This document shows positions 1 through 41,644 of a stretch of DNA of 41,644 bases, piece after piece; positions within the stretch are counted from its first letter, which is position 1, and every line of letters starts with the position of its first letter. A program made the position numbers and the translations under genes. Source of the stretch: a virus (taxonomy: Duplodnaviria > Heunggongvirae > Uroviricota > Caudoviricetes); the IMG/VR virus record IMGVR_UViG_2617271072_000007; one strand, given 5' to 3'. Under the pieces are notes generated by a model. That model was not told the origin of the DNA, ran no database searches, and saw only the letters and a program-made list of their open reading frames with translations.

Positions 1-420
1 ATGAAAACACACATTGATAATATAAAACCGGGACAAATGTTGATTCTCACATTCCCTGTAGGGGATGATAATTTCACATTCTATGAGCAAAATGCGAATG
101 TCATTGCAAAACTAAATGATTCTGCTAGAGACTCAATAATTAACATATACACATATTCACGCTCATTAATACAATCATTTAAAGGAAACAACAAACTCAT
201 TGAGGATTATGAAAAAATCCTTATTGGCATGGCAGACAATAACAAAGATAAAACCATGTATAAGAGATTACATGATGCAAAAATAAATGTAATGGTAGAT
301 TATGCTCAAGGGATAAAAAATATTGATGCAGAGCTAAGAGATGCAGTCAATAAGGGATTCGACATTATCGACCAAGAAGTAAAGTCACTACAAATGAAAT
401 TAAACAAATTAGCTTCATAG
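1..420 (+). CDS. hypothetical AT-rich cargo protein; may be 5'-truncated by the window edge
   Basis: 139-aa ORF starting at nt 1, much lower GC than the phage backbone, convergent with the invertase gene; no recognisable motif. Confidence 0.4.
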   Translation: MKTHIDNIKPGQMLILTFPVGDDNFTFYEQNANVIAKLNDSARDSIINIYTYSRSLIQSFKGNNKLIEDYEKILIGMADNNKDKTMYKRLHDAKINVMVDYAQGIKNIDAELRDAVNKGFDIIDQEVKSLQMKLNKLAS

Positions 421-469
421 AATGCTCCACTCCCTGTTCAATATTTTTACAAGCTTATCAGCCAACCGC

Positions 470-494
470 AGCACGTTCTTGCATACGACGTGCT
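470..494. terminator. putative hairpin between convergent genes
   Basis: 7-bp stem AGCACGT / ACGTGCT with 11-nt loop; weak T tract after it. Confidence 0.3.
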
Positions 495-500
495 ACGGTT

Positions 501-1055
501 TCATTTATCTCCCACCGGAAACCTCTTATACAAAGTCGATATGCCAACATCATAGATGATCGCTACCTTCAGGCGAGGAACTCCTGATGCAATTAATCGT
601 CCGGCCTGTGCCCATTGTTCTGGTGTAAGTTTGGGACGTCGTCCACCAATTCGTCCCTGTGCGCGAGCAGCTTCCAGTCCTGCTTTTGTTCGTTCAACAA
701 TCAGTTCACGTTCCATTTCAGCCAGGGCACCCATCACATGAAAGAAAAAGCGCCCCATTGGGGTACTGGTATCAATTGAATCCGTCAGACTACGAAAGTT
801 GATGCCTCGTTCGCGCAACTCCTCCACCAGCACGACAAGATGCCGCATACTGCGCCCCAGTCGGTCCAGTTTCCAGACCACCAGCGTATCACCTGCCGAT
901 AATGTCCTGAGTAGTTTTTTCAGTCCCGGCCTTTCGGACTTTGTACCGCTTATCTTGTCTTCAAAAATCAGCTCGCATCCTGCACAGTTCAGCGCATTAC
1001 GTTGTAGATCTGTGTTCTGGTCATTTGTTGACACACGTACATAGCCAATAAGCAT
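501..1055 (-). CDS. serine recombinase, DNA invertase (Pin/Gin/Hin/Cin family)
   Basis: N-terminus MLIGYVRVSTNDQNTDLQ with catalytic Ser, VVWKLDRLGRS and C-terminal HTH; RBS GGGAGA before the ATG at 1055; track ORF 501..1091 starts earlier in frame. Confidence 0.9.
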   Translation of the reverse strand: MLIGYVRVSTNDQNTDLQRNALNCAGCELIFEDKISGTKSERPGLKKLLRTLSAGDTLVVWKLDRLGRSMRHLVVLVEELRERGINFRSLTDSIDTSTPMGRFFFHVMGALAEMERELIVERTKAGLEAARAQGRIGGRRPKLTPEQWAQAGRLIASGVPRLKVAIIYDVGISTLYKRFPVGDK

Positions 1056-1121
1056 GGTAGATCTCCCTGACAAAAGCAGGAATGATGCCATTTGCTCGTT
1101 ATTTCTGCATTTTCATAAACG

Positions 1122-1149
1122 TTGGTTTTGGAGAAGGTGCTAACTGGGT
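1122..1149. repeat. left crossover (gix/hix-like) site of invertible segment
   Basis: TTTTCATAAACGTTGGTTTTGGAGAAGG; inverted match to 2919-2946 (about 18/20 in the core). Confidence 0.55.
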
Positions 1150-1417
1150 TATGTTACCTGGAGGAATGATAATTCAGCGTGTTTATCTTGGATTTCCTGT
1201 CGGAACCAATGTAAGACACATAACTTTCCCCCGGTCGTTTACAACAACGAACTATTCAATCTCAATTAACTGGAATGATATCGGTACTGCAACAACTGAA
1301 ACACAATCTCCAGCAAATGTGGCGGTTGTTCATCAAACAAAATCATTAACAGGGGCCAGCATCTGGCAGGCAGGTCCCGGGGGATTTAATGTGGACATTA
1401 TAGCGGTGGGGTATTGA
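1135..1417 (+). CDS. alternative tail-fibre C-terminal variable segment (silent orientation, no own start)
   Basis: Open frame beginning inside the left crossover site with GFGEG, matching GLGEG at the right site in the expressed fibre. Confidence 0.55.
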
Positions 1418-1848
1418 TATGTACGTATGGAGCGCTAAAGCAAATGGCTTTTTCCCCATATCGGAGAAAGAAAAAATTTGAGGCATCAGGTCTGTGGCCT
1501 GATGATGGTGTAATAGTCAGTGAAGAAGAACATAAAAAGTTATTTATGGATATTCCACCAAGAAAACAGATTGGAACACAGAATGGAAAACCAGCACTGA
1601 TAGATATTCCTCAGCCGACCAAAAAGGAATTAATCGCTATTGCTGAAGTTAAAAAATCCCAATTACGGGAAAAAGCTGACAGTGAAATATCCTGGCGTCA
1701 GGATGCTGTTGATGCTGATATCGCAACTGATGAAGAAACTTCAACTCTCACCGAATGGAAGAAATATCGTGTGCTGCTGATGCGTGTTGATACTTCAACA
1801 GCACCCGATATTGAATGGCCTACGCCTCCGGCAGTTCAGGCCAGATGA
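1414..1848 (+). CDS. alternative tail fibre assembly protein (silent orientation)
   Basis: C-terminus [13 protein letters not shown] parallels [13 protein letters not shown] of the expressed assembly protein; convergent overlap with it. Confidence 0.65.
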
Positions 1849-2422
1849 CATCCGGCGCGGTGCTGGTATCTGTTACCGTCACCGCGTCAATGTAATCCAG
1901 CACGGCGTTAAGTCGGGTTGTTTCTGCCTGCGTCAGCTTCCGCCCGGCCTGTAATTTCAGTTGAATCAGACTGATGGAAGCCATTGCAGTATCAATCAGT
2001 GACTGACGCTGTGCTTCTGCCGCTCCTACTGCGGCGCTATGCTGTGCCTCAGTATCGGTCACCCATTTCTCACCATCCCATTTATCGTATAGCGTTAATG
2101 GGGCGATAGTGGTTGTATTTTCAGGATAATCACCCGGTGCTGTGATTTCTTTCGATTCTCCTGTTTCGGTGCTATAGACGATTTCACTGCGATGGTCTGG
2201 CACATATTCCCACGAGTTATAATCTGCAGAACGGCAAATTGCATAACCAGCTTTATATGAGCCGGGAGCATCTAAACAGGAACATGCCGGAATGCCGACA
2301 CCCACAGCAAGATATTCAGTTGATGTGAAAATATATTCCCGTGTTTCACCATCATAGTTATAAACCGTAATATTTCCTGCCTGGGTGGCGATAAATTCGT
2401 TATTTAATACAGCGTAATCCAT
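1820..2422 (-). CDS. tail fibre assembly protein (expressed orientation)
   Basis: 200 aa; start overlaps the fibre stop (TAATG); typical Tfa-like sequence. Confidence 0.85.
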
Positions 2423-8317: not shown

Positions 8318-8904
8318 TAGCCGCCCCCCAGTAATGACGCCACGTTACCCGTGATGCTTTTCAGCAGTGAAGTATCTGGAGGTTTTGTGGTTTTGTTGCC
8401 GCTGTTCTGTACCGCCGAGGTGCTGGCCCCTTCCTTCATATTGGTTTTATCCGCGACGGTAATCTGCTGTGTCCGGGAGATAAGGACCTCCCTCAGGGTA
8501 AGAACGGCGGACAGGACGTTTTCGGTTGTCTTGTCCGTCGTCACTTCCAGCGCCCGGATCAACATGTTGCTGTACAGTCGTTTACCGGTTACCACATCGA
8601 AGGGGATACGGCTTTCCTGCAGATCCAGTAGCTCCTGATACGTCTGCTGAGGACTCAGGCCGAGCAGGCTGGTAGCTGTCAGATTACTGGCAAAATCCAG
8701 CAATGCGCCGCCACCGGCGAAACCAACCTCCATCACCACTTCTGACGGTTTTTTATAGGCATGATCAGCGACAGCAGCCCCGACCTCTACCGGATGCTCT
8801 GTTATTTCAAGCATATCTGTATGCTTCTCTGAAATAACAACACTGGGAACAATCATTCCTATTTTTCTGCTCTGCTGATGAAAAAGTGTAGAGAGAATAT
8901 CCAC
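8317..8904 (-). CDS. tail protein, function unassigned
   Basis: 195 aa, immediately after the tape measure gene. Confidence 0.45.
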   Translation of the reverse strand: MDILSTLFHQQSRKIGMIVPSVVISEKHTDMLEITEHPVEVGAAVADHAYKKPSEVVMEVGFAGGGALLDFASNLTATSLLGLSPQQTYQELLDLQESRIPFDVVTGKRLYSNMLIRALEVTTDKTTENVLSAVLTLREVLISRTQQITVADKTNMKEGASTSAVQNSGNKTTKPPDTSLLKSITGNVASLLGGG

Positions 8905-27672: not shown

Positions 27673-28348
27673 ATGATTGATACTACCGATATCCTTTCTC
27701 AAAACATCAAGTACCTGATGGACAAAGCCAAGATAAGCTCGATAACTGAGCTGGCACGTCGGTTACAGCTGAACCAACCAACGCTACACAGGCTGGTATC
27801 AGGAGAGGTGAAAGATCCGAAATACGCAACGTTAAAGCAGATCGCCAACTACTTCCACGTGTCACCAATAGACTTGGCAGAAAGGAGCCTTCAAGAAATG
27901 GAGAAAGAGGACGCGACAGGTATAAAAAACGTATATTTCTCTTAGGTTTAATAAAGTACCTGTTTTGGGAAACACTCAGCTAGGCGTTGGAGGACTTTGG
28001 AGCGACACCCAATATTCAGTAGGTAGCAGTGATGGTTTCATATACTGGCCGACAAAGGATGAAGATGCATACGCCCTGAAATGTGTTGGTGATTCAATGA
28101 TGCCTAGAATCAAAGAGGGGGAGTTCGTAATCGTCGAACCCAACCACGACTACACTCCTGGTGATGAAGTACTTGTGGTTACCCGGGACGGTGAGGTCAT
28201 GGTGAAAACCTTCTTGTTCGAACGCGATGGCCTGTTCCATCTAATGTCTGTAAATGAAGATCATCCACCAGTCAGAGTACCACGCGAAAACATTGAAAAA
28301 ATCCATTACGTGGCGGGGATCGCCAAATCCGCGCTACGTATGTACTAA
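27673..28348 (+). CDS. cI: CI-type repressor (HTH plus S24 LexA-like peptidase); frame broken by a 1-nt indel
   Basis: HTH in 27673..27945, GDSMMP peptidase motif in 27965..28348; frames join at the A6 run about 27924-27929. Confidence 0.85.
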
Positions 28349-28378
28349 CCTTTACAGTCTGATAACTTACTTCTGATC

Positions 28379-28408
28379 AAACCGCTCTCCACAAGGGCGG
28401 TTTTCTTA
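28379..28408 (+). terminator. rho-independent terminator after cI
   Basis: Stem AACCGC(TCT) / (GGG)GCGGTT of about 9 bp followed by TTTTCTTATTT. Confidence 0.7.
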
Positions 28409-28432
28409 TTTGCAAAATAATTCATTTTCGTA

Positions 28433-28483
28433 TTGACACAAAATCCCATAACGCATATAAATACGATATCGCATAATTAATGC
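28433..28483 (+). promoter_or_regulatory. pL-like early-left promoter with overlapping OL-type operators
   Basis: TTGACA (28433-28438), 16-17 nt spacer, TATAAAT; operator-like AACGCATATAAATACG and palindrome CGCATAATTAATGCG overlap it. Confidence 0.65.
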
Positions 28484-28497
28484 GTTTTTTTAATACT

Positions 28498-28509
28498 GGC
28501 TCTTTAACA
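28498..28509 (+). promoter_or_regulatory. boxA-like element (nut-type antitermination signal)
   Basis: GCTCTTTAACAA about 30 nt downstream of the predicted pL start; matches the rrn / lambdoid boxA core; no boxB hairpin identified. Confidence 0.45.
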
Positions 28510-28659
28510 AACTGAACCGCGTGACAGGTAAGCCGCAGTACTCCTGGCAAAACGAAATAGCACCCGATGGGATCGAGGTAAGCGCCGAGTCCGTATGCGT
28601 ACGGTAAGCGTAGAGGACAACACCGCGACAAACTGATAAGTCACGCAAGTTGAAACGCC

Positions 28660-28683
28660 CCGACGATGGGGCGCTTAGTTCCT
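28660..28683 (-). terminator. putative terminator of the 174-aa minus-strand gene
   Basis: Hairpin CGCCCC-GACGAT-GGGGCG; on the minus strand followed by UUUC. Confidence 0.45.
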
Positions 28684-28767
28684 TTTGGGGTGGGGTGAAG
28701 ATCAGTCCATTGAGTCAATCCGAAGTTCAGCATCTACCACTACACCACCACCAAAGAGAACTGCTAA

Positions 28768-29292
28768 TCATCTGGCAGGTTGTAACGGTGCAGGAATTTT
28801 GCCACTGACTTCTATATTTCGGGGAAATTTATATTCAGCGGAGCATTTATGACACTTGAGAATTTTATAAGCGGCATTAGAAGTATGGTATTGAAGTATA
28901 GACTTCATACCCGACTCATAGCATGTAGTACAAAGATAATGAGGCTTGAACTCAGGATCGTCAGTAGGCTTCAGTACATAGACCACCGTATTGGTAATCG
29001 GGTGGTACATTTCATAGTTCATTTTCTCACTATCCCAATCCTGTTTCTTTTCAAGAAGGGATTCGAGTTCAACAATGCGCTGTTTAGCTTCGTTCAAAAG
29101 CTCCGTTAGTGCGAATTGTCCAGTACGCGCATCAATTAGTTTATCAAGTAGATCGATAGTTTTACTTTTAACATTGTAATCCACCTGCAACGCATTAACT
29201 TCTTTTGCTAAATCAACAGCACCTTTCAAAGCACCACCAGCACTAGTGGCCGCCTCAGTTATACGCCGTACAAGTCCTTTTTCTTCAGACAT
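28768..29292 (-). CDS. coiled-coil protein with C-terminal C4 zinc ribbon; immunity-region cargo
   Basis: 174 aa; CTTC-x22-CHKC; transcribed towards the pL promoter, antisense to the early-left operon. Confidence 0.55.
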   Translation of the reverse strand: MSEEKGLVRRITEAATSAGGALKGAVDLAKEVNALQVDYNVKSKTIDLLDKLIDARTGQFALTELLNEAKQRIVELESLLEKKQDWDSEKMNYEMYHPITNTVVYVLKPTDDPEFKPHYLCTTCYESGMKSILQYHTSNAAYKILKCHKCSAEYKFPRNIEVSGKIPAPLQPAR

Positions 29293-29420
29293 CTTAATTC
29301 TCTCTAAAACTATAGGGGTAAAGAGATATTAGCCGAATTCTCGCTGTAGGGGTACAGAGAGAGCCATCTCGTCTGACGTGGTTAAAACTGACATCCATGT
29401 AATTGCTGTGTGTAGCCTTT

Positions 29421-29446
29421 GCCCGCCTCAAGTGACGGGCTTTTTT
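29421..29446 (+). terminator. putative plus-strand terminator (tL-like) before the early-left genes
   Basis: Stem GCCCG / CGGGC with 10-nt loop followed by T6. Confidence 0.4.
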
Positions 29447-29505
29447 ATGTCTGAAAGCGCACTCGCAACAGCGCGCTCCCCGATATGAAAAAAGGAATAC
29501 AACCG

Positions 29506-29655
29506 ATGAAACCTGAACACATCCATCGACTGACGGGGCGCGATGTTCTCCGTTATCGCCGTAAAAACTTCGATTTGATGACCGGTCTGGCCGTTGCCAC
29601 TGCGCTCGGTCTGATCATCACTTTCATTCTCCTTGTAGCGAGGACCACAGTATGA
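29506..29655 (+). CDS. small membrane peptide (49 aa); not in the ORF track
   Basis: RBS AAGGAA, Arg-rich N-terminus, C-terminal helix LAVATALGLIITFILLV; stop overlaps the next ATG (ATGA). Confidence 0.4.
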   Translation: MKPEHIHRLTGRDVLRYRRKNFDLMTGLAVATALGLIITFILLVARTTV

Positions 29656-30554
29656 GTTTAGAAACCAGTCTCGAACTTAATAATCAACTTCTGGCACAAC
29701 ATAATGCGCTGCTTGAACGTCTTATCCGCACAATGGCATCAGGTATTGTTATGCATCCTGACACGATTTCACGAGTGCAGGAATGTCGGGATACAGCAAC
29801 TGAAGCTGAAAACATGTCAGCGGCAATGACACTGGATGATCTGGAGTTCAGCGACGTTATCGCACTGGCTGGTTTCTACCCGGTAGCCACCCCTATCACA
29901 GAAGACATGCTGCAACGTGCTGTTGCCTACCGTGATGCTGAAGGCGATAAACGAGTAGTTCAGATTGATGCTCTCGACAGCGCATTACAGGGCGTCAAAC
30001 GAGCCAGGGCGCTGCTTAAACCTGCTCTCCTGGACCTGTCCCGTAACATTCTTAAGTTCTGGGACGACCTGCCAACCATCGGCGAGCGACGTGCTTTTGC
30101 CGAGCAGCTACTTGATGCACCTGCAGATGGGCGTGATGAAGTTAAGCCGAAAAAGGCCAGTAACAAAGATGGAGAACGCACGGGGCCGTTTTACGTCAAA
30201 AATGTATCCGGCACAGCAGCCAGTGAACTCCACACCTTACGCAAGTTGAACGAGATGCTTAAAAAAGGCCATATCGAGATCAACCGTGTTGAGTACCTTC
30301 AGCTGCAGGAAGAATTTGCACGCAAAGACGCAGCAAATTCCAGCCAGAATAATGACGCCAAAGATGACCATACAATTGATTTCGCGGCACTACGCAAACA
30401 AGCTGAAGGGTTGATCCTCCAGTTAGCAAAAGGGGGTTACCGGGCAGAAGCTATTGCAATTCTGGAAAAACAGGGAGCCAGGAAACTTGGTGAAGTAACG
30501 GATGAAAATCTCGCTGAAGTAATCACCCTGGCTGAAAAAGCACTGGAGGGTTAA
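29652..30554 (+). CDS. hypothetical early protein
   Basis: 300 aa, translationally coupled to neighbours, no motif recognised. Confidence 0.55.
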
Positions 30555-30556
30555 TT

Positions 30557-31858
30557 ATGCCAGACGTTCATGCACGACTTTCCCCGTCATCGGCGCATCG
30601 ATGGATGCGCTGCCCAGGAAGTCTGGCGCTGGAGGCCACACAACCGGATAAAGAAACAACTTTTGCAATCGAGGGCACTGCAGCGCACGCGCTTGCTGAA
30701 AAAGTTCTACGAAACAGGCAAAGCCACCCGGAACACTACGCCGGATGCAATGTTTCTATGTTTCTCGGCTCATACCCCCTTCGCGAAAATCCTGATGATA
30801 CATCTGGCCCACAGGTGGATGATGAAATGGTCGAAGCCGTTGGCCGGTATGTTGATACGGTCTGGACTCTTGCACAGAATAATGAACTATTGGTTGAACA
30901 ACGTGTTGATTTCTCACATATAACGGGTGTGGAAGAATCTTTCGGAACTGCCGACGGCATAATCATCGCGGGTAACGAATTACAAATCCACGACCTGAAA
31001 TATGGCAAAGGCGTCCGCATTGATGCAGAACAAAATGAGCAACTACAACTGTATGCTCTGGGTGCGCTCGAACAATTCAGCATGCTGTATGACTTTGAGA
31101 CTGTAAGATTATTTATTCACCAGCCAAGGCTCAACCACGTTTCAGAATGGTCGTTAACCGTACAGGAACTTCAGTCTTTCGGTGAACGGGCACTGGAGGC
31201 CGCAACCAGTGCGATCCTTGTTCTCAATATTGCTGAATGCGAAGGCATTGAGACACTACCGCTGGAAAACTTCATACCTGGAGAAAAACAGTGCCGCTTC
31301 TGTAAAGCAAAAGCTATTTGCACTGCCCAGAAAATGCAGCATTTACAAACAGCGGCCAGCGACTTTGAAGATCTGACAAAGCCTGTCAGCGAAATAATCA
31401 CCAATGCCAGCGCACGTGTACCTCTGTTAACCATTGAGCAGCTTGCGGAGATCTATAGCCAGGCCGACTTTATTGAATCCTGGCTAAAGGCAGTACGGGA
31501 CCGGGTTCATAATGAACTCAATGCCGGACATCCGGTACCGGGGTTTAAACTGGTAACAGGAAAACAAGGTAACCGGGCCTGGAGTGATGAAGAGGCAGCT
31601 CGCGCACTTCTGAAGGACCAGTTCAGGTACAAAACTGAAGAAGTATTCGACTTTAAACTTATTAGTCCCACAAAAGCCGAAAAACTTATCAAAAAGGCCA
31701 GTCCGCGCCGTTGGTCAAAAGTCGAGGCACTGATAACACGAGCTGATGGTAAACCCACCGTCGTTCCCGAGTCAGACCCACGCCCCGCACTCAATATCAA
31801 CCCTGTAAATGATTTCGACGACGTATCCGACGATACGCTAACCGCAGACCTCATCTGA
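30557..31858 (+). CDS. PD-(D/E)xK nuclease, DUF2800 / Cas4-like
   Basis: 433 aa; ADGIII ... IHDLKYGK nuclease motif and Cys cluster [10 protein letters not shown]. Confidence 0.7.
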
Positions 31859-31873
31859 TTTAAGGAAATACCC

Positions 31874-32422
31874 ATGAAACTGAAGCTGAACAATGTTCGT
31901 CTGGCCTTCCCGTCTCTGTTTGAAGCTAAAACTGTAAACGGCGAAGGCGATCCGCGTTTCTCCGCAGTATTTTTAATGTCTCCCAAACACCCACAACTGG
32001 AAGAAATCCGTAAAGCTATGAAGCAGGTAGCGAAGGAAAAATGGGGGGAGAAGTGGGAGTCCATTTATAACCAGCTGGAGAAAAAACTCAATCTGTGCCT
32101 GCATGATGGTGATGAAAAAGCAGAGTATGAAGGCTTTCCCGGCAATTTCTTCCTGAACGCTGCTAACAAAGCGCGCCCAGCTGTTCTTGATCGCGATCGT
32201 TCGCCACTAATTCAGGCTGATGGACGTCCCTATGCAGGGTGCTATGTAAACGCCGTTATCGATATCTGGGCACAGGACAATAATTTCGGTAAACGCATTA
32301 ATGCCTCACTCGGCGGAGTCCAGTTCCTGCGAGACGGCGATGCATTCGCTGGCGGCGGAGTGGCAAGCGCTGACGATTTCGACGATATCAGCGAAGGCGC
32401 TGATGCTGAAGCACTAATTTAA
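31874..32422 (+). CDS. DUF2815-like protein (ssDNA-binding-type partner of DUF2800)
   Basis: 182 aa, N-terminus MKLKLNNVRLAFPSLFEAK, acidic C-terminus. Confidence 0.65.
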   Translation: MKLKLNNVRLAFPSLFEAKTVNGEGDPRFSAVFLMSPKHPQLEEIRKAMKQVAKEKWGEKWESIYNQLEKKLNLCLHDGDEKAEYEGFPGNFFLNAANKARPAVLDRDRSPLIQADGRPYAGCYVNAVIDIWAQDNNFGKRINASLGGVQFLRDGDAFAGGGVASADDFDDISEGADAEALI

Positions 32423-32474
32423 AAAATATTCATCCCCCAGCTACGTGCTGGGGTATCTCATGAGGGAAAGTATA

Positions 32475-33116
32475 ATGTCACAGCCCGTATTAACTAATCA
32501 CCTTAAAACTCAAATCATCAATAACGCACTTGAGAAAGCGGGTATTCCCAAACGTAAATCAGCACTACGAGCTACTCGTGTTGAATGGGCCGAACGTGTT
32601 CGGCTTGCAGCTATCGGGGGCGTAGAGAAAGAAGCTGAAATATTAAAAAATATAAAAAGATTGAATCCATGGTCACAAAAATCCTCTGATTCATTAAAAA
32701 CCAATAGTTCTTTAATTCGAAAAGATTGCTGCATATATCTCAATCTGGCTGGAGCCAGAGCAAACATTTATTTCAATGGCAACTACAGAGGTTATGAATC
32801 AGGAGCCCCCGAGCATATTAATAAAATAGCACCTGCAGAATTTACTCTACTTGGCGAAGATCCTCTGGTAACGGAGTTTTATAGCTTTGATGCTCTCTAC
32901 ACACAAATTAAAAGTGATGAAACCGAAATCATACAGAACGTCAGCGCGGCTCTAAATAAAGTTCGGACAGTAAAACGATTACTGGATGTATGGCCCGAAG
33001 CTAAAGAACTGCTTCCAACAGACGCACCGCCAGTCCCTTTAGCACCAGCAGTACATCGAGAGACATTAAATGAAATGATAGGCCTTCCTACCAATACAGT
33101 GTCTGATACTCAATAA
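32475..33116 (+). CDS. hypothetical protein, AT-rich
   Basis: 213 aa from MSQPVLT with RBS GAGGGA; track ORF 32445..33116 starts at an upstream GTG. Confidence 0.5.
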   Translation: MSQPVLTNHLKTQIINNALEKAGIPKRKSALRATRVEWAERVRLAAIGGVEKEAEILKNIKRLNPWSQKSSDSLKTNSSLIRKDCCIYLNLAGARANIYFNGNYRGYESGAPEHINKIAPAEFTLLGEDPLVTEFYSFDALYTQIKSDETEIIQNVSAALNKVRTVKRLLDVWPEAKELLPTDAPPVPLAPAVHRETLNEMIGLPTNTVSDTQ

Positions 33117-33799
33117 CAAGGGGGATGCTTATTATATGATTTTGAACGTTTTACAATCTCGTTAAGAGGCGTGAAATCAAAATCTCTGAATAACACATCA
33201 GGATACTTCGCTCTTGCTTTATCCAGCAGACCAGTTAAAGTATTTTTTGTGTTACCCAACATTGTATTAACCGCCACTACATGTCTAATTTCTGGAGGTT
33301 TATCTATACCACCAGAAATTGCTTCATTAAGAACCGACGCCAGTGGGGTTTGTCCCTTACTTGTTGAATCCCACAGCGTCATTAACAGACGAGCTGCGTC
33401 TATAAATAGCTTTTTGTCAGCATTTGGCTTGACAGTAATACCAGAACTACCTGAGCCAGAACCGGAACGTTCTATTGCTGCACTGGTATCCGATTTCATA
33501 GGATTAAATAACGGCAGCTCTGTACAACCGATACGCCGAATGAAATCCTTTGCAACATCTCTACCACAGAAAAAAGCCCCTGTACAATTTTCATCAGAGC
33601 GTTTTTTAAATGAAAAACAATAGTACTGATCGGTTAACGGATAACCGGAATAACTGGTTTTAGTTTGTCCAGTAATAAGTTTCAGGTGTGCAACAGGCTG
33701 AATAATAAAATCCCGAACTATCGCATCTTTTATGTCGTTACCACGGTGACAATAATATTCAGGTAATCCATTAGGCTGTCTCTTATTACCCACAGTCAT
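33110..33799 (-). CDS. hypothetical two-domain protein, AT-rich, antisense to the operon
   Basis: 229 aa; Cys/His-rich N-domain, SGSGSGSSG linker, C-domain; convergent 7-nt overlap with the preceding gene. Confidence 0.55.
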   Translation of the reverse strand: MTVGNKRQPNGLPEYYCHRGNDIKDAIVRDFIIQPVAHLKLITGQTKTSYSGYPLTDQYYCFSFKKRSDENCTGAFFCGRDVAKDFIRRIGCTELPLFNPMKSDTSAAIERSGSGSGSSGITVKPNADKKLFIDAARLLMTLWDSTSKGQTPLASVLNEAISGGIDKPPEIRHVVAVNTMLGNTKNTLTGLLDKARAKYPDVLFRDFDFTPLNEIVKRSKSYNKHPPCY

Positions 33800-33860
33800 T
33801 AGTTGTCTCCTTTAATTCATGATATCTAGCATTTAACCATATACCATATGAGGATATTTT

Positions 33861-35924
33861 ATGTCCAATATACTATGGGGCGACCTGGAAACCTATTGTG
33901 ACATTCCGATCAACAACGGTACCCATGCGTATGCCGAAGGCGTTGAAGTGATGCTTTTCGCATGGGCTATCAACGACGGGCCAGTAAACGTGTGGGATAT
34001 CACTGCCGGTGGTGGTATTCCACACGGCTTATACGAAGCAATCGCAGACCCTGAAACCCTGCTTTATTTCCATAACTCTCACTTCGACCGCACCGTTCTG
34101 CGTTATGCAATGCCGCGACTGGCACCGCCAGTCGAACGTTGGCGCGACACGATGGTGCAGGCGCTGGCGCACGGTCTCCCGGGGTCTCTGGGGGAACTCT
34201 GCGAAGTACTAGGCGTCCCGCAAGACAAAGCGAAGGACAAAGAAGGTAAAGCGCTGATCCAGCTGTTCTGTAAGCCACGCCCGAAAAACAGCAAACTGCG
34301 TCGGGCCACCAGTAAAACCCACCCGGAAGAATGGCGGCGCTTTGTTGCTTACGCCGGACTGGATATCGAGGCAATGCGCGAAGTCTATAAACGTCTGCCG
34401 AAGTGGAATTATCAGGGGACAGAACTGGCGCTCTGGCATCGTGATCAGCAGATCAATGACCGGGGCGTCTGCATGGACATGCAACTCGCACGCGCTGCGA
34501 TCGAAGCGGTAGACCAGGAACAAAAGCGCCTGGCAAAGCGTACACAGGAAATGACTGATGGCGAAGTGCAGGCAGCCACACAACGAGACACGTTGATTAA
34601 GCACATTGTTGAATCCTACGGTGTGGAGCTACCAGACATGCAACGCAGTACTCTGGAACGTCGTATTGCCGACCCCGATTTACCATCTGCCGTGAAAGAA
34701 CTGCTGGCTATCCGACTGCAGGCCAGTACTACCAGCACCAGTAAATACAAGGCACTGATGAAAGGCGTAAGCCACGACGGGCGCTTACGCGGTACGCTAC
34801 AGTTCTGCGGGGCGTCACGTACCGGTCGTTGGGCCGGACGGCTATTCCAGCCCCAGAATCTTCCCCGCCCTTCACTAAAACAGGAACAAATAGACGAAGG
34901 CATCGAAGCACTGAAAGCCGGATGTGCAGACCTGCTGTTTGACAATATCATGGAACTAACCAGTTCAGCGTTACGTGGCTGCATTATCGCGCCAACAGGC
35001 AAAAAACTGGTGGTAAGTGACTTGTCGAACATTGAAGGCCGTATGCTGGCATGGCTGGCAGGAGAAGAATGGAAACTGAATGCATTCAGAGAGTACGACG
35101 CCGGAACGGGTTCGGACTTATATAAACTGGCGTATGCAAAAGCTTTCGATATTGCACCAGATGATGTTGATAAACACATGCGTCAGATCGGTAAAGTCAT
35201 GGAGCTCGGTCTGGGTTATGGTGGTGGTGTATCGGCTTTCATCACTTTTGCGCTGGTTTACGGTCTCGATCTCGACGAGCTGGCGAACGCCGCACTGCCA
35301 AACATTCCCCGCGATGTTATCCGCGAGGCGAAAAGCTGGTACGACGAATCGGTTAAACGCAAGTCAACCTACGGGCTTTCTGAACGGGTATTTATCGCCT
35401 GCGACTCACTTAAACGTCTCTGGCGCAGGGCGCACCCGGCGACCTGCGATTTCTGGTACGAACTGGAGCGCACCGTCCGCACAGCAATCGCCACACCGCA
35501 AAAAACATTGTATTGCGGCTATCTTAAAATCCGACGTGATGGCGCGTGGCTGCGCATACAGCTACCATCCGGACGCGCTGTATGCTACCCGTCTCCGGTT
35601 ATCGAAAAAGGGAATATCACCTACATGGGTGTTAACTCTTATTCGCGTAAATGGCAACGACTCAAAACCTACGGCGGAAAGCTGGTGGAGAACGTCACCC
35701 AGGCAGCCGCCCGCGACGTTCTGGCCGGAAACATGCCGCTTATCGAAGATGCCGGTTACAGCATTGTGTTGACGGTACACGACGAGGTGATCACCGAAGC
35801 ACCTGACACAGAAGATTTCAACGATAAAGCGCTTTCCGCGCTTCTCTCCACTAACCCCGAATGGGCACCCGATATTCCGCTGAATGCTGGCGGCTTTGAG
35901 GCGTACCACTACCGTAAGGAGTAA
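33861..35924 (+). CDS. family-A DNA polymerase with 3'-5' exonuclease domain
   Basis: 687 aa; DLETY exonuclease motif, [11 protein letters not shown] (motif A), [12 protein letters not shown] (motif B), VHDEV (motif C). Confidence 0.9.
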
Positions 35925-35931
35925 TACAAAG

Positions 35932-36960
35932 TCACTTAAAATCCCTAGATAACATCTGCGAAGCAGCTGATGCTGTATAAACTCCAGTATGTTTTATTTC
36001 TGCAGCTATTTTGTAGCCATCCTCCTTAAACTGCGTAAGCATTGAGCTTAAGGAACCAAGTTTTTTAGTATTCAACACCATTCTAACGACAGTTCCTTCA
36101 TGATAATGACCTAACTCTATATGCTTCTTTCCGTGTTCATCTAGATATATTGCATGGTCACCGCTACAAATAAGAAAACTACCGCCAAGTTTACATATAC
36201 GGCTGATCATATAAAGGCCAAATCCCGAATTATGCCAAGGATTTCTTGTATTGATTCTCGCCCCCTTAAAATTTTTACTAGAAATAGATGGCATTAACGC
36301 TAACTGAATGGCTTCAGAATCATTATCAGCTTCTATATAAGGGTTCTTCGATAGAGATTTTTTCATTCCTATACCATTATCAGAAATTGTTATTTCAACA
36401 CGGTCATAAGAAGGCCAATACTGTGCACAATATTCAATCACCTTTGAATCACTATGTTCCACAACATTACGCATAATTTCCCTAATAGAAAATGTCAAAG
36501 CATCAATGAGGTCGCCTTCTTCTTGGCGAGCAAGAATCTTTGCTAATTTACCAGATCGTTCCTCAACTATCTCTTGCACCTCAGTATATTTATCGTTAGC
36601 TTCATCTATAACTGTTTGAACACGAAGAATTGTAAATGGAACAAAATTATTATTTCCATCTGTACATCCCGGTTCACGGCCATGCTTTAACCCGAAGGCT
36701 CGAAAGAATGCCATATTTGCGGCATAATCCTTATTCTCATGCCCGCTACAAAAAAGTTTAAAACCATCAATGTTCTTTTTCTGTTTTCGATGGAAGTCTC
36801 GAATATGCTTAGCAACATAAACCATTGTAAATGGTTCAATCCTTCCCATATGCGAAAAATCGATTGTTATTTGCTGTTGACCTGAATGTTTTTCAATTTC
36901 ATTGCAAAAATTAAATATCTTTTCAGGATTACATGAAGAGGGAAATAAGATTCGTGACAT
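35932..36960 (-). CDS. GHKL-type (histidine-kinase-like) ATPase with unknown N-terminal domain; cargo gene
   Basis: 342 aa; N-box NVVEHSDS, G1 DNGIGM, G2 GFGLYM; AT-rich; opposite strand to the operon. Confidence 0.65.
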   Translation of the reverse strand: MSRILFPSSCNPEKIFNFCNEIEKHSGQQQITIDFSHMGRIEPFTMVYVAKHIRDFHRKQKKNIDGFKLFCSGHENKDYAANMAFFRAFGLKHGREPGCTDGNNNFVPFTILRVQTVIDEANDKYTEVQEIVEERSGKLAKILARQEEGDLIDALTFSIREIMRNVVEHSDSKVIEYCAQYWPSYDRVEITISDNGIGMKKSLSKNPYIEADNDSEAIQLALMPSISSKNFKGARINTRNPWHNSGFGLYMISRICKLGGSFLICSGDHAIYLDEHGKKHIELGHYHEGTVVRMVLNTKKLGSLSSMLTQFKEDGYKIAAEIKHTGVYTASAASQMLSRDFK

Positions 36961-37020
36961 ATTAATTCCTTATACTTGTTTTATTTGATACTACCCAATA
37001 AGTGTTAACAAGGCAAATTT

Positions 37021-37308
37021 ATGTCTTATGAACGTGAGAGCCTTATCGAAAAGCACCTCGTCGCTGAAGTGAAAAAGGCTGGCGGTGTGGCCTTTAAGTT
37101 CGTATCTCCCGGTCGCCGCTCGGTACCGGATCGCATTGTTCTGCTACCCGGCGGCCGTCTTGTTTTCGTTGAATGCAAAGCACCCGGCAAAGCACCACGC
37201 GCCGACCAGTTGCGCGAGCACGAGCGGCTGCGCGAGCTGGGCTTTACCGTGGTGGTGCTGGATAGCAAAAATCTGGAGGAAATTATTTTAAGCCGCAATA
37301 AAAGATAA
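37021..37308 (+). CDS. VRR-NUC nuclease
   Basis: 95 aa; PDRIVLLPGG ... FVECK PD-(D/E)xK core; GC-rich. Confidence 0.75.
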   Translation: MSYERESLIEKHLVAEVKKAGGVAFKFVSPGRRSVPDRIVLLPGGRLVFVECKAPGKAPRADQLREHERLRELGFTVVVLDSKNLEEIILSRNKR

Positions 37309-37320
37309 AAGACTTATGCT

Positions 37321-37905
37321 TTAATCCGTATTTTTAACACGTGTTTCGAAACACTCTTTTAATTTAGCTATTTCCTTTTTAGAGGACATAACTGTGAATT
37401 TCATCCCTTTTAAATCATTAACAAATTCAAATTTTGCGCTATTGGACTCACAATCACCAACAACAAAACCACTACCAAATGAATTGAGCAACACTTTAGT
37501 ATTACTACCATCTACCATATAATATTCGTTATTTTTAAATGCAGTAACCTTCCCGAAGGTATAGCTCAATATCAATAATGTCATCACCCCTAAAGGAAAA
37601 GCTGATTTTAGGATTTTTAAATCGATATAATAAAATACGTCTTTATACTCTGCAAGCCTCCCAAACTTTCTAATGCTATCCATATGATGTTCGTGTCTCT
37701 TACTATGGATTGACGCGGACACCGCATTGTGGTAATTCAACAAAAGCAGAGCAAATAATAAAATATCTCCAACACTCATCACAGAGGTTTCGGAGAAATA
37801 ACCAAAAGGCCAATGAAATCCTATTATGTAAAAATTAGGTATTAGCATAACCACTATAAATATAATAAATGGAACATAATATTTCCCTTTCAAATCAAAC
37901 ATCAA
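37321..37905 (-). CDS. membrane protein, AT-rich cargo
   Basis: 194 aa; three N-terminal hydrophobic helices plus about 80-aa soluble domain; likely ATG at 37902. Confidence 0.6.
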   Translation of the reverse strand: MMFDLKGKYYVPFIIFIVVMLIPNFYIIGFHWPFGYFSETSVMSVGDILLFALLLLNYHNAVSASIHSKRHEHHMDSIRKFGRLAEYKDVFYYIDLKILKSAFPLGVMTLLILSYTFGKVTAFKNNEYYMVDGSNTKVLLNSFGSGFVVGDCESNSAKFEFVNDLKGMKFTVMSSKKEIAKLKECFETRVKNTD

Positions 37906-38183
37906 TGTCGCGTATAAGGCACCGAGAAATAAAAACTAAAAAACAAAAGCCATACAGCCGAATACAATAGCGTATTTAAATCTATTTTAATAAAAAAGGG
38001 CTGGATAGCCATAATACGATGCAACACCTTTCTGAAAAGAATATGCCATCGCATAAGCTAAACGCTGAAAAAACAGTTAATAAAGAAACTTGTTTTGTAA
38101 GTATTTTTGCCAGGGGCATACCCGCCTCCGTTAGTTATATATATAGAGAGAGAATTGACACATATTCTACCATAGGTGTATTA

Positions 38184-39578
38184 ATGAATAACATATTCCA
38201 CCCCCGACTTTATCAAAACCTCATAATCAATCACCAAACCGACATTCTGCGCGGCAACATCTGGGCAGGGATGGGGATGGGTAAAACCGTAGCGACACTC
38301 ACCACGCTGGAAGATCTTTTCATGGCTGGAGCAGAAACACACCCCGCGCTGGTCCTCGCGCCGCTACGCGTTGCAGCAAGCACCTGGCCTGATGAAGCTG
38401 TTAAATGGGGGCATCTGCGTAATATTGAGGTACAGCCGATCATCGGTAACGCCAAAGCGCGCTCTACGGCGCTGGCGAACAGCAACGCGAGCGTGTTCAC
38501 CATCAACTACGATAACCTTGTCTGGCTGGTTGAAGAATTGGGAGAACGATGGCCGTTCGGAACTGTCATTCCAGATGAAAGCACCCGGCTAAAATCCTTC
38601 CGGCTGCGAGGTGGTGGTAAGCGCGCGGCGGCGCTGGGCAAAGTGGCGCATAAGTATGTCCGGCGCTGGATAAATCTCACCGGTACGCCAGCACCGAACG
38701 GCCTGGTAGATTTGTGGGGACAATCGTGGTTTGTGGACCAAGGGCAACGTCTCGGGCGCACTTACGGCGCGTTTACCTCACGCTGGTTCAACTCGATACA
38801 GTTTCCGGGACAGAGCTGGACTAAACTGGAACCTTTTGCTCACTCACAGGGTGAAATACAGCGAGCATTAGCCGATGTGACCCTCTCGCTGGATGCGGCC
38901 GACTGGTTCGATATCAAAGACCCCATCCATAACGTAATCCGCGTGGATATGCCCCCGAAGGCCCGTCAGCAGTATCGTGAAATGGAAAAGGAAATGTTCC
39001 TCGAGCTGAATGGCGAAGGCATCGAAGCACCGAACGCCGCGGCAAAGACACTGAAGTGTCTTCAAATCGCTAGTGGTGCAGTATACACAGACGACACCGG
39101 AAGTTGGTCAGAACTGCATGACACCAAACTACAGGCGCTGGACAGCATACTGACCGAAGCAGCTGGCGCACCTGTGCTGGTTGCTTATCACTGGAAACAC
39201 GATCTTGAACGCTTGCTTAAAGCATTCCCTCGCGGTCGTCACCTCGACCAGGATCCACAGACACTGCGCGACTGGAATTCCGGAAAGATTCCTGTTCTCT
39301 TTGCACACCCAGCCAGCGCGGGCCACGGCCTGAACATGCAGGACGGCGGAAATATACTGGTATTTTTCTCACACTGGTGGGACCTGGAGCAATATCAGCA
39401 AATTATTGAACGTATCGGCCCCACCAGGCAGATACAGGCCGGACACAATCGTCCGGTATTTATTCACCACATTATTGCTGCCGACACTATGGACGAAATG
39501 GTGATGGAGCGGCGCAACTCAAAACGAACAGTGCAGGACATCCTGCTCGATGCCATGAAAAAGAGAGGTATAGCATGA
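38184..39578 (+). CDS. SNF2-family helicase
   Basis: Walker A GMGKT, DExx box VIPDEST; start MNNIFHPRLYQ; the 38019 upstream extension is unlikely to be real. Confidence 0.85.
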   Translation: MNNIFHPRLYQNLIINHQTDILRGNIWAGMGMGKTVATLTTLEDLFMAGAETHPALVLAPLRVAASTWPDEAVKWGHLRNIEVQPIIGNAKARSTALANSNASVFTINYDNLVWLVEELGERWPFGTVIPDESTRLKSFRLRGGGKRAAALGKVAHKYVRRWINLTGTPAPNGLVDLWGQSWFVDQGQRLGRTYGAFTSRWFNSIQFPGQSWTKLEPFAHSQGEIQRALADVTLSLDAADWFDIKDPIHNVIRVDMPPKARQQYREMEKEMFLELNGEGIEAPNAAAKTLKCLQIASGAVYTDDTGSWSELHDTKLQALDSILTEAAGAPVLVAYHWKHDLERLLKAFPRGRHLDQDPQTLRDWNSGKIPVLFAHPASAGHGLNMQDGGNILVFFSHWWDLEQYQQIIERIGPTRQIQAGHNRPVFIHHIIAADTMDEMVMERRNSKRTVQDILLDAMKKRGIA

Positions 39579-39775
39579 GCGAGAAACCCGACGATTTACT
39601 CACCCCGGATGAAGTATGCCAAAAGTTAGGTATTACACAGAAAACGCTATGTGAGTGGAATATTAAGCATCGTCATCGGGCTATCCTGGCACCAATTCGT
39701 TTCAGTGCAAAAGTAGTTCGTTATGAGCGCCGCAATGTCGACGCTTTTATTCAAAAGTGTCGCAGCCGGTATTAA
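39575..39775 (+). CDS. xis: AlpA/Xis-type excisionase or DNA-binding regulator
   Basis: 66 aa HTH; start overlaps the SNF2 stop; convergent with the integrase. Confidence 0.7.
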   Translation: MSEKPDDLLTPDEVCQKLGITQKTLCEWNIKHRHRAILAPIRFSAKVVRYERRNVDAFIQKCRSRY

Positions 39776-41175
39776 CCTCGCCGCCGTAGCAATGCCACCT
39801 GCGCAAGTATGCTCCGCTCGTGAGCCTCGAAAGCTTCGCGCTTTAACGCAATCTCTTCCTGCAAAATCTCATCAGAAAAGTCGTAATGTTCTGCCATCGG
39901 GTCATCTGACTTGCTGGAGTGGTGAAGGCAAAGGAGGCTGATTTCCCTTCGGTCTGATCGGGAATAGCCTCTTTCCTTCATCAAGGCAATAACATTGCTC
40001 TTAAGGAATTTACGGCACATCGTATTAAATGCACCGTCTTTCCCTTTAACAGTCCCATCATGTTTTATTCCTTTTACAGCCCCATCCGGGCTGTATGTTT
40101 TCACTAGCTTATCCAGTGATCGTTTTGAAAATGGCTGCATTGGATCACGCGGCTGCAAAAATACATAATCCCTGTTGCACTCAGGAACTGAATCACGCCA
40201 TGCTTTCTGCTCGTCGATAATCCGCCGGATCTCCGGCGTTATTGGCAGGCGGAAAGCCTTTTGTGTTTTCATAGCCCCTCGCATGCCGATAACCCCTTCA
40301 GGATAAACAATTTCGCCAGTCTCCTCGTGAACGTAGTCCCAGCGCAGGTTATGGACATTAATCGGACGAACGCCGGTGATGATCATGAAGCGAACAGCAT
40401 TCTTCTGGTGTACAGAGGTGCAGGCGGCAACATTGAGCCAGAGCCGGGCGATTGACTCAATATCGGTAAAAAGCCGTGTGGGGGTGGGTTTCTGTACGCG
40501 GGAGGAAACATAATCATCTGGCAGACTGGCAGCAACATTGCGACCGTTACAAAGAGTAGGTGCGCAGAACTTCCAGAACCGACGGAGCTCGGCAAACAAC
40601 TCCAGGGCGTTATTGTTCGAGCGAGTGGCGATCCACTCGTCCAGCACTTCCACTAGCCGATTGTATGTTACGTCGCTGAACACCTCACGCTCGCCGAACG
40701 TTGCTTTAATCCGGTCGATACGCACCCCGTAGGTTGTGAAACTGTCCGGGCTCAGCTTCTGCCGGGCGACTTTGGCTTTGAGGTCATCCCGGTACATTTC
40801 CAGCGCTGCATGTACGGACTCTGCCCGCAAGCCACAGTCAGCCATACCTAGCGCTTTTTCGCGCGCCAGCTGGATAGCGAGCTCCGGCCACTCGCCGAGC
40901 TTTTTACCCTTGAGGCCCATCTTTTTTGGAAACTCGGCGTAAAATGTAACCTTACCGGCTTTGCTGAAATCGATACGGAGATAGTTCTCTTTTTCGTATT
41001 TGGAACGGCGAGCCACGCCGGAAGCAGCGAGGATGATTTTGGCGGCAGCAACACAGATTTTCATGTGTGCGCTGGTATAGGGGGGTTTACAGGCGTCCCA
41101 TTTTTCAGATGCGGCTAAAACATCGTCATTATTGGGGCTATCCGGATTATGTGTTACAGTGCGCGGCATTCTCAA
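39772..41175 (-). CDS. int: tyrosine integrase (P4-type)
   Basis: 467-aa ORF; true start may be MKICVAAAK at about 41064; sits at the prophage-chromosome boundary. Confidence 0.85.
   Translation of the reverse strand: MRMPRTVTHNPDSPNNDDVLAASEKWDACKPPYTSAHMKICVAAAKIILAASGVARRSKYEKENYLRIDFSKAGKVTFYAEFPKKMGLKGKKLGEWPELAIQLAREKALGMADCGLRAESVHAALEMYRDDLKAKVARQKLSPDSFTTYGVRIDRIKATFGEREVFSDVTYNRLVEVLDEWIATRSNNNALELFAELRRFWKFCAPTLCNGRNVAASLPDDYVSSRVQKPTPTRLFTDIESIARLWLNVAACTSVHQKNAVRFMIITGVRPINVHNLRWDYVHEETGEIVYPEGVIGMRGAMKTQKAFRLPITPEIRRIIDEQKAWRDSVPECNRDYVFLQPRDPMQPFSKRSLDKLVKTYSPDGAVKGIKHDGTVKGKDGAFNTMCRKFLKSNVIALMKERGYSRSDRREISLLCLHHSSKSDDPMAEHYDFSDEILQEEIALKREAFEAHERSILAQVALLRRRG

Positions 41176-41374: not shown

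Positions 41375-41644
<270 letters not shown>

Follow-up and report, generated by a model that had tools for sequence, protein, structure and literature searches.

The window, the whole 41,644-nt stretch of tailed-phage DNA analysed here, opens inside a protein-coding gene. An open frame occupies positions 1..420 on the plus strand, with 139 codons followed by a stop, and bases 1-1100 are 100% identical to a locus of E. coli MINF_2E (NZ_LR890651.1), in which the same frame runs 228 nt further upstream to give the 215-aa coding sequence WP_001288820.1 (L001:11773-12420). The start codon of the full gene lies at L001:11773, 228 nt left of the window, and window position 1 falls on internal Met77 of the product. 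From a frame scan, homologues, dN/dS and a structure model, we assign positions 1..420 (+) to codons 77-215 and the stop of this cargo gene, a share that holds most of the helical bundle of the protein; its membrane helix (~residues 15-33) is encoded outside the window. The initial annotation had described a very AT-rich ORF of 139 aa, convergent with the adjacent invertase and perhaps continuing beyond the window; the low GC content (0.31), the opposite strand of pinE and the 228 additional nucleotides in the identical MINF_2E locus agree with this description, and the length is corrected to 215 aa. It had also counted against its own reading the chance that the ORF might be the 3' fragment of an ordinary host or phage gene—the ORF is literally a 3' fragment, since the gene is longer, though not one of an ordinary host or phage gene.

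A 139-aa version is also found in some databases, for example as G2583_3093 of O55:H7 CB9615, for which RefSeq gives 215 aa in the same strain. A genuine truncation was considered and rejected, both because RefSeq assigns the full 215 aa to these very strains and because the first 76 codons show conservation as well as purifying selection. This selection acts throughout the gene, with dN/dS of 0.08-0.21 for codons 1-76 versus 0.06-0.14 for codons 77-215. The shorter form is thus best read as an old start-codon call, an artefact of annotation and, here, of the window edge.

The protein belongs to a close family of 216 homologues of 215-223 aa that share 62-75% identity across the Enterobacterales, including clinical E. 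coli, Enterobacter, Klebsiella, Providencia, and Morganella. An exhaustive profile search extended this family to 683 cluster representatives at E values up to 1e-3 (264 at 1e-10), nearly all of them 185-230 aa long; with clusters defined at 50% identity, the superfamily comprises at least 683 clusters. The composition of the cargo gene is foreign as judged by its GC content of 0.31-0.33 (0.31 over window positions 1-450), compared with ~0.49-0.5 in the adjoining phage genes, and the gene stays at 32-36% GC in hosts where its flanks range from 40 to 60%. Such a composition invites the explanation that the ORF is a decaying remnant or a spurious frame in AT-rich DNA beside an attachment site, given that low GC yields long chance ORFs and that older annotations are split on the start (139 versus 215 aa). 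This explanation is effectively refuted by dN/dS values of ~0.07-0.2 with synonymous sites between genera near saturation, by 58 invariant columns among 51 sequences (mean column identity across genera, 78%), by the conserved length of the 683 representatives, and by a confident structure model. Because the 216 homologues are of conserved length and dN/dS is low, the coding status of window positions 1-420 can be placed well beyond chance.

Facing the cargo gene is pinE, a serine invertase on the minus strand (501..1055, with the frame open to 1091; Resolvase E=1.9e-51 and HTH_7 E=8.3e-11 in Pfam; pinE in RefSeq), and beyond it an invertible tail-fibre tip/assembly module (1082..2422) made up of a gp53-like C-terminal fragment and two convergent Caudo_TAP genes. 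The stops of the cargo gene and pinE, at 418-420 and 501-503, converge across a spacer of 80 nt. Folding against shuffled sequences identified a hairpin in this spacer at 464..500 (dG -18.1 kcal/mol, z = -2.75), with 0 of 200 shuffles folding equally well. From its sequence and its location between the two stops, the hairpin looks like a bidirectional terminator; a simple terminator scan passed over it and reported no canonical terminator. At the other end of the gene, a TATAAT-like box ~60 nt upstream is kept across genera; a promoter consensus scan of the cargo locus gave chance-level, uninformative output, and an Rfam search of the cassette leader and its flanking repeats (described below) returned no match.

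The element that carries the gene is a complete temperate myovirus of ~42.2 kb integrated in yfhL, a site of prophage integration that has already been reported. The attR core, AATTGTGATATGTGTGAA, was read directly from the sequence at 41414..41431, and an identical 18-bp attL core (AATTGTGATATGTGTGAA) lies at L001:11217-11234, 766 nt left of window position 1. Extending the locus leftwards, as had been proposed, therefore recovered both the full gene and the prophage end, and since attL lies beyond the gene, the boundary does not fall between the gene and pinE, an arrangement that had been raised as a possible objection. At the right end, the yfhL ferredoxin gene (41384..41644, +; from sequence and annotation) is reconstituted with a 5' end supplied by the phage, whose 16 codons (41384-41431) are near-identical to the native ones, with 2 amino-acid differences. 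The native 5' end is found at L001:11187-11243, just past host yfhH, and then meets a premature stop; this truncated stub and its promoter at attL point into the 215-aa gene and the ORF of 88-92 aa that lies before it.

From the integrase end (a tyrosine-type recombinase/integrase annotated at 39772..41175, minus strand), the prophage runs through a replication module (DNA polymerase, helicase, VRR-NUC, and VapE), a repressor with a Cro-like HTH protein, a Q antiterminator, a lysis cassette, head, tail and baseplate genes, and the invertible fibres with pinE; past pinE come the 215-aa gene, an ORF of 88-92 aa, and attL. The lysis cassette (a lambda-family holin, a GH24 lysozyme, and a third ORF) is ~22 kb from the cargo gene, and the immunity, replication, and integration modules are likewise sited away from it; the gene sits between attL and pinE, within the prophage limits yet apart from the conserved functional modules. 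On position, a role in lysis or as a spanin was rejected, given the distance to the lysis cassette.

The small ORF next to attL, ORF92 (88-92 aa; L001:11434-11712, equivalent to window positions -566..-288), lies between attL and the 215-aa gene and matches phrog_17793 (E=7e-44), a family of unassigned function; it is unannotated in MINF_2E and corresponds to WP_001253101.1 in O55:H7 strains. The initial annotation had suspected a partner gene beyond the window, and an upstream ORF does exist, though not as a conserved partner. The two occur together only in 13 near-identical loci of the E. coli type; ORF92 is missing from 38 other loci that bear the gene, and it is present without the gene in two more (L013 and L014). 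An obligate partnership was rejected because co-occurrence is limited to the E. coli-type loci.

The slot itself is variable among related prophages at the same attachment site. A search of 5426 complete E. coli genomes found the 1.2-kb stretch from attL to the stop of the cargo gene in 154, of which 80 have it in full, and the yfhL prophages of L013 and L014 carry different cargo in the same slot, namely ORF92 with a hypothetical protein of 281 aa (WP_001039127.1 at L013:5271-6116, where a truncated invertase adjoins it). In a further locus (L015:4753-5850) the slot holds a trio consisting of a 108-aa ORF, a DUF2335 membrane protein, and a 90-aa ORF. PADLOC found no matches among the alternative cargo of L013, L014, and L015. 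Presence, absence, or replacement at one site and a deviating base composition are among the marks of a moron, and the feature at 1..420 is the 3' two-thirds of a stand-alone accessory ('moron') gene of 215 aa located between the tail-fibre invertase and attL.

These distributions also bear on whether the protein, instead of benefiting the host, serves the phage life cycle or the maintenance of the element, for example as an accessory to lysis or injection, as a regulator of the antiholin type, or as a membrane toxin that stabilises the element. An N-terminal helix followed by a coiled helical domain is superficially like i-spanins and some membrane toxins, and the gene is often found beside toxin-antitoxin pairs. 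Set against this, the gene is not beside the endolysin, the phage has its complete lysis cassette at a separate, distant location, the loci share no antitoxin-like partner, and the gene also occurs in non-phage contexts. Most prophages of this type and attachment site lack the gene, which is therefore dispensable for the phage. We regard a role of this kind as improbable.

The position of the gene had been likened to that of mcrA in e14, and the likeness holds for the slot and fails for orientation and content. In K-12, e14 has the order stfE, pinE, mcrA, icdC (att), so that in both prophages a cargo gene lies between a pin invertase and the att-site end. However, mcrA is co-directional with pinE whereas the 215-aa gene is convergent with it, the attachment site is icd for e14 and yfhL here, and the proteins are unrelated: McrA is annotated in K-12 as a type IV methyl-directed restriction enzyme, and the 215-aa protein is all-helical and membrane-anchored, without a nuclease domain. 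No similarity to McrA, Old, or Tin was found.

Searches against known families agreed with the earlier view that the function is unassigned. The 215-aa protein had no match in Pfam, NCBIfam, PADLOC, PHROGs, or PDB sequences, and is annotated as 'hypothetical' in every source checked; a Pfam scan at E values up to 10 gave just Pgp3_N and Baculo_PEP_C, both at chance level. The initial annotation had looked to PADLOC for a defence assignment of the extended locus, and none emerged: PADLOC-DB v2, whose models include the McrA/type IV, Old, Tin, Abi, PD-, PDC- and Rst- families, returned 0 families for either protein, the 215-aa product or ORF92, with E values up to 10 allowed. Fifty distant members of the superfamily shared no common Pfam or PADLOC family, and Pfam gave no match to named exclusion families (SieB, Imm, RexA/RexB and similar) for the protein or for these 50 relatives. 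In INPHARED no phage record encodes a family member, and our literature search found no paper mentioning the accession of the protein.

Conservation across the superfamily centres on a Gly-rich, hydrophobic N-terminal helix and on E65, Y73, F101, Y126, N139-N140, and Y177; within the N-terminal 76 codons, G24, G28, and G29 are invariant. A Kyte-Doolittle hydropathy window over 19 residues reached at least 1.6 in 90% of 140 superfamily representatives, with a median start at residue 10, and K/R residues were richer on the C-terminal than on the N-terminal flank of the helix in 116 of the 140. This excess, read by the positive-inside rule, predicts a single-pass membrane protein with its N-terminus out and its C-terminus in. 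The structure model (pLDDT 84.9, pTM 0.71) shows a confident long helical bundle whose membrane-distal loop, FPVGDDNFTFYEQNA, is invariant. The closest folds are four-helix-bundle sensor domains of chemoreceptors and kinases, and DUF3829, at identities of just 5-12% and with no Pfam match. Those sensor domains have a membrane helix on either side and occupy the periplasm, whereas in this protein one helix precedes the bundle, for which a cytoplasmic location is predicted; de novo designs also appear among the structure matches, so such bundles recur by convergence.

Across loci, the gene always stands alone, without a conserved partner, and turns up repeatedly in the accessory slots of mobile elements. 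It lies in an islet adjoining HigBA in Enterobacter; in an ICE near CcdAB and IS110 in Dickeya; in a lambdoid prophage, on the same strand and directly after CI and an HSDR_N protein, in Providencia; after a tail-tip gene, ahead of umuDC and an icd fragment, in Morganella; and as the last gene before an icd fragment in a Citrobacter prophage of the Mu-Gp48/baseplate-J type, which is the mcrA position. More distant relatives extend this range, with a 31%-identical relative on SopAB phage-plasmids and on ~29 IncFIB-type plasmids, a 28%-identical relative directly downstream of, and co-oriented with, a prophage HTH repressor, and a 25%-identical relative in plain chromosome with no mobile context. 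In IMG/VR, 21 viral contigs carry the gene, several of them within a few hundred bases of the contig end. The IncFIB-type plasmids, of ~110 kb, comprise L064 (NC_032102.1:85699-86301) and 28 others and hold a relative of ~30% identity; these plasmids, from Enterobacter, Citrobacter, Salmonella, and E. coli, are mostly non-mobilizable and carry phage genes, and are probable phage-plasmids. The distant alignment (A3) proved too diverged to serve in locus scans.

Among the 145 nearest ORFs at 21 non-redundant loci, the recurrent Pfam families were integrase, UmuC with S24 peptidase, SRAP, HTH_3, and tail proteins. Strong PADLOC matches in the same set were to PDC-S25 (twice), PDC-S18, a PifA-like protein, and PD-Lambda-2 A and B; taken as raw counts, these defence-gene neighbours are at most suggestive.

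The homologous loci also delimit a mobile unit. DNA similarity among the other genera reaches ~180-270 nt upstream and ~25-90 nt downstream of the ORF, and in three loci complete inverted repeats of ~95 nt with TG...CA termini lie at both ends: in Providencia (L010:7872-7962 on the plus strand and 8737-8659 on the minus strand), in Budvicia (L034:5746-5834, plus, and 6740-6650, minus), and in an IMG/VR contig (L057:5746-5831, plus, and 6706-6629, minus). Partial or junction-like copies occur in Morganella and Dickeya (L017:6809-6847 and 7723-7662; L008:7775-7846). Immediately downstream of the cassette in the IMG/VR contig, at L057:7161-9299, is the gene for a PifA-like protein, matched by PADLOC over its N-terminal half (E=1.7e-65). 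Extra repeat copies in Morganella and Dickeya (L017:7662-7733 and 8567-8604; L008:6348-6375) flank neighbouring small ORFs of unassigned function, which suggests that prophage and ICE accessory regions may hold arrays of such cassettes.

We also asked whether the flanking palindromes could be integron attC sites, taking as the criterion complementary R''/R' boxes (RYYYAAC ... GTTRRRY) that close the 3' side of a cassette, together with an integron context. The Dickeya junction palindrome ends in GTTAAAC; the box is not kept in the other loci, the repeats lie at both ends as inverted copies bounded by TG...CA, and no integron integrase lies nearby, so the attC reading is not supported.

The repeats instead connect the family to P2-like phages. 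The left cassette end matches ~99 plasmids and 26 phage records, all of the latter P2-like, and in AJ512679/81/83/85 the matched segment is the one annotated as 'left inverted repeat' of the P2 Z-region; in P2-EC45 and P2-EC48, this 'left inverted repeat' can be aligned with the homologue repeats from end to end. In these Z-region records the repeats bracket ORFs labelled 'putative lysogenic conversion'. The source of the records is Nilsson et al. 2004, as cited in Rousset 2022 (PMC9122126), which, in its treatment of P2 variable loci, cites the Z-region work among loci that include anti-phage genes. Like P2 Z/fun cassettes, the homologue cassettes are AT-rich, hold a single gene or a few, and lie beside tail-fibre genes; unlike them, the copy in the window shows no repeats and its host phage is not P2-like. 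A run of nhmmer at maximum sensitivity, with E values up to 10, detected no repeat at the E. coli copy in the window, and no P2-like phage record holds a family member. Because the homologue repeats match those of the P2 Z-region, the family is, on the evidence of these repeats, part of the same pool of mobile single-gene cassettes, although the cassette ends can no longer be seen at the copy in the window. The link to P2 Z/fun cassettes hints at a shared route by which single cargo genes move among phages, plasmids, ICEs, and chromosomes.

With regard to function, the strongest contextual hint is the placement of two independent lineages directly behind a prophage repressor and co-oriented with it, which by analogy would point to exclusion. 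The slot behind the repressor is classically occupied by exclusion genes, such as lambda rexAB, and also by sieB of P22 and lambda. The 215-aa protein resembles the products of these genes in being small and, as predicted, membrane-associated; it differs in having no sequence relationship to them (Pfam, E values up to 10) and in its architecture, with a single predicted membrane helix. From context of this kind, we tentatively propose that the gene encodes an exclusion or abortive-infection factor expressed in the lysogen, an assignment that we hold to be plausible yet short of probable.

In the mechanism that we envisage, the protein would be made in the lysogen, driven by its own promoter, by an operon with ORF92, or by read-through from the yfhL stub. 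Read-through from the host promoter is possible because ORF92 and the gene are co-directional with the truncated yfhL 5' end. The protein would insert into the inner membrane, N-terminus out and C-terminus in, by way of the Gly-zipper-like helix formed around G24, G28, and G29, which may self-associate, and would expose its helical bundle to the cytoplasm. There, the bundle and the invariant loop FPVGDDNFTFYEQNA could bind a component of an incoming phage or the DNA-entry machinery, so that either entry would be blocked at the membrane or the membrane would be perturbed and the infection aborted.

The same anatomy and context—moron slots, AT-rich composition, a stand-alone gene—would equally suit a lysogenic-conversion or fitness factor that alters the host envelope, stress physiology, or host interactions, has nothing to do with phage exclusion, and would be selected for a direct benefit to the lysogen. 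The label given to such ORFs in the P2 Z-region records, 'putative lysogenic conversion proteins', speaks for a factor of this kind, as do neighbours that are often umuDC, SRAP, or arsenic-resistance genes and not defence genes, and the occurrence of some relatives in chromosomes without mobile context. It accounts less well for the two repressor-linked lineages, and no similarity to known virulence, envelope, or stress families was found; on balance, we consider conversion possible but unlikely. If the gene is not a defence gene, it would be an ordinary uncharacterised moron, and the practical lesson would concern the 139-aa annotation, which rests on a truncated start call.

If, on the other hand, phage exclusion is the correct reading, the gene would stand for a one-gene, easily testable defence family that is invisible to PADLOC and Pfam. 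The wider proposal that follows—that at least 683 clusters constitute a new, widespread family of single-gene, single-pass membrane-anchored factors of phage exclusion or abortive infection, carried to prophage ends, slots beside repressors, phage-plasmids, and ICEs on the ~95-bp-repeat cassettes that also occupy the P2 Z/fun hotspot—is one that we put forward more guardedly still, as a possibility somewhat less likely than exclusion by this gene.

Two further observations concern other genes of these elements. In Providencia prophages, a 385-aa HSDR_N protein (type I restriction R-subunit N-terminal domain) is encoded between CI and the cargo gene at L010:6715-7872; PADLOC returned no match for it, and it is another possible candidate exclusion gene. 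In the yfhL prophage, window positions ~28000-39600 (L061:2828-13636 in MINF_2E) encode, besides DNA polymerase, a DEAD/DEAH helicase, VRR-NUC, and VapE, the proteins DUF2800 and DUF2815 and an 'Nmad5 family putative nucleotide modification protein', a replication and modification module that is unusually rich for a temperate coliphage.
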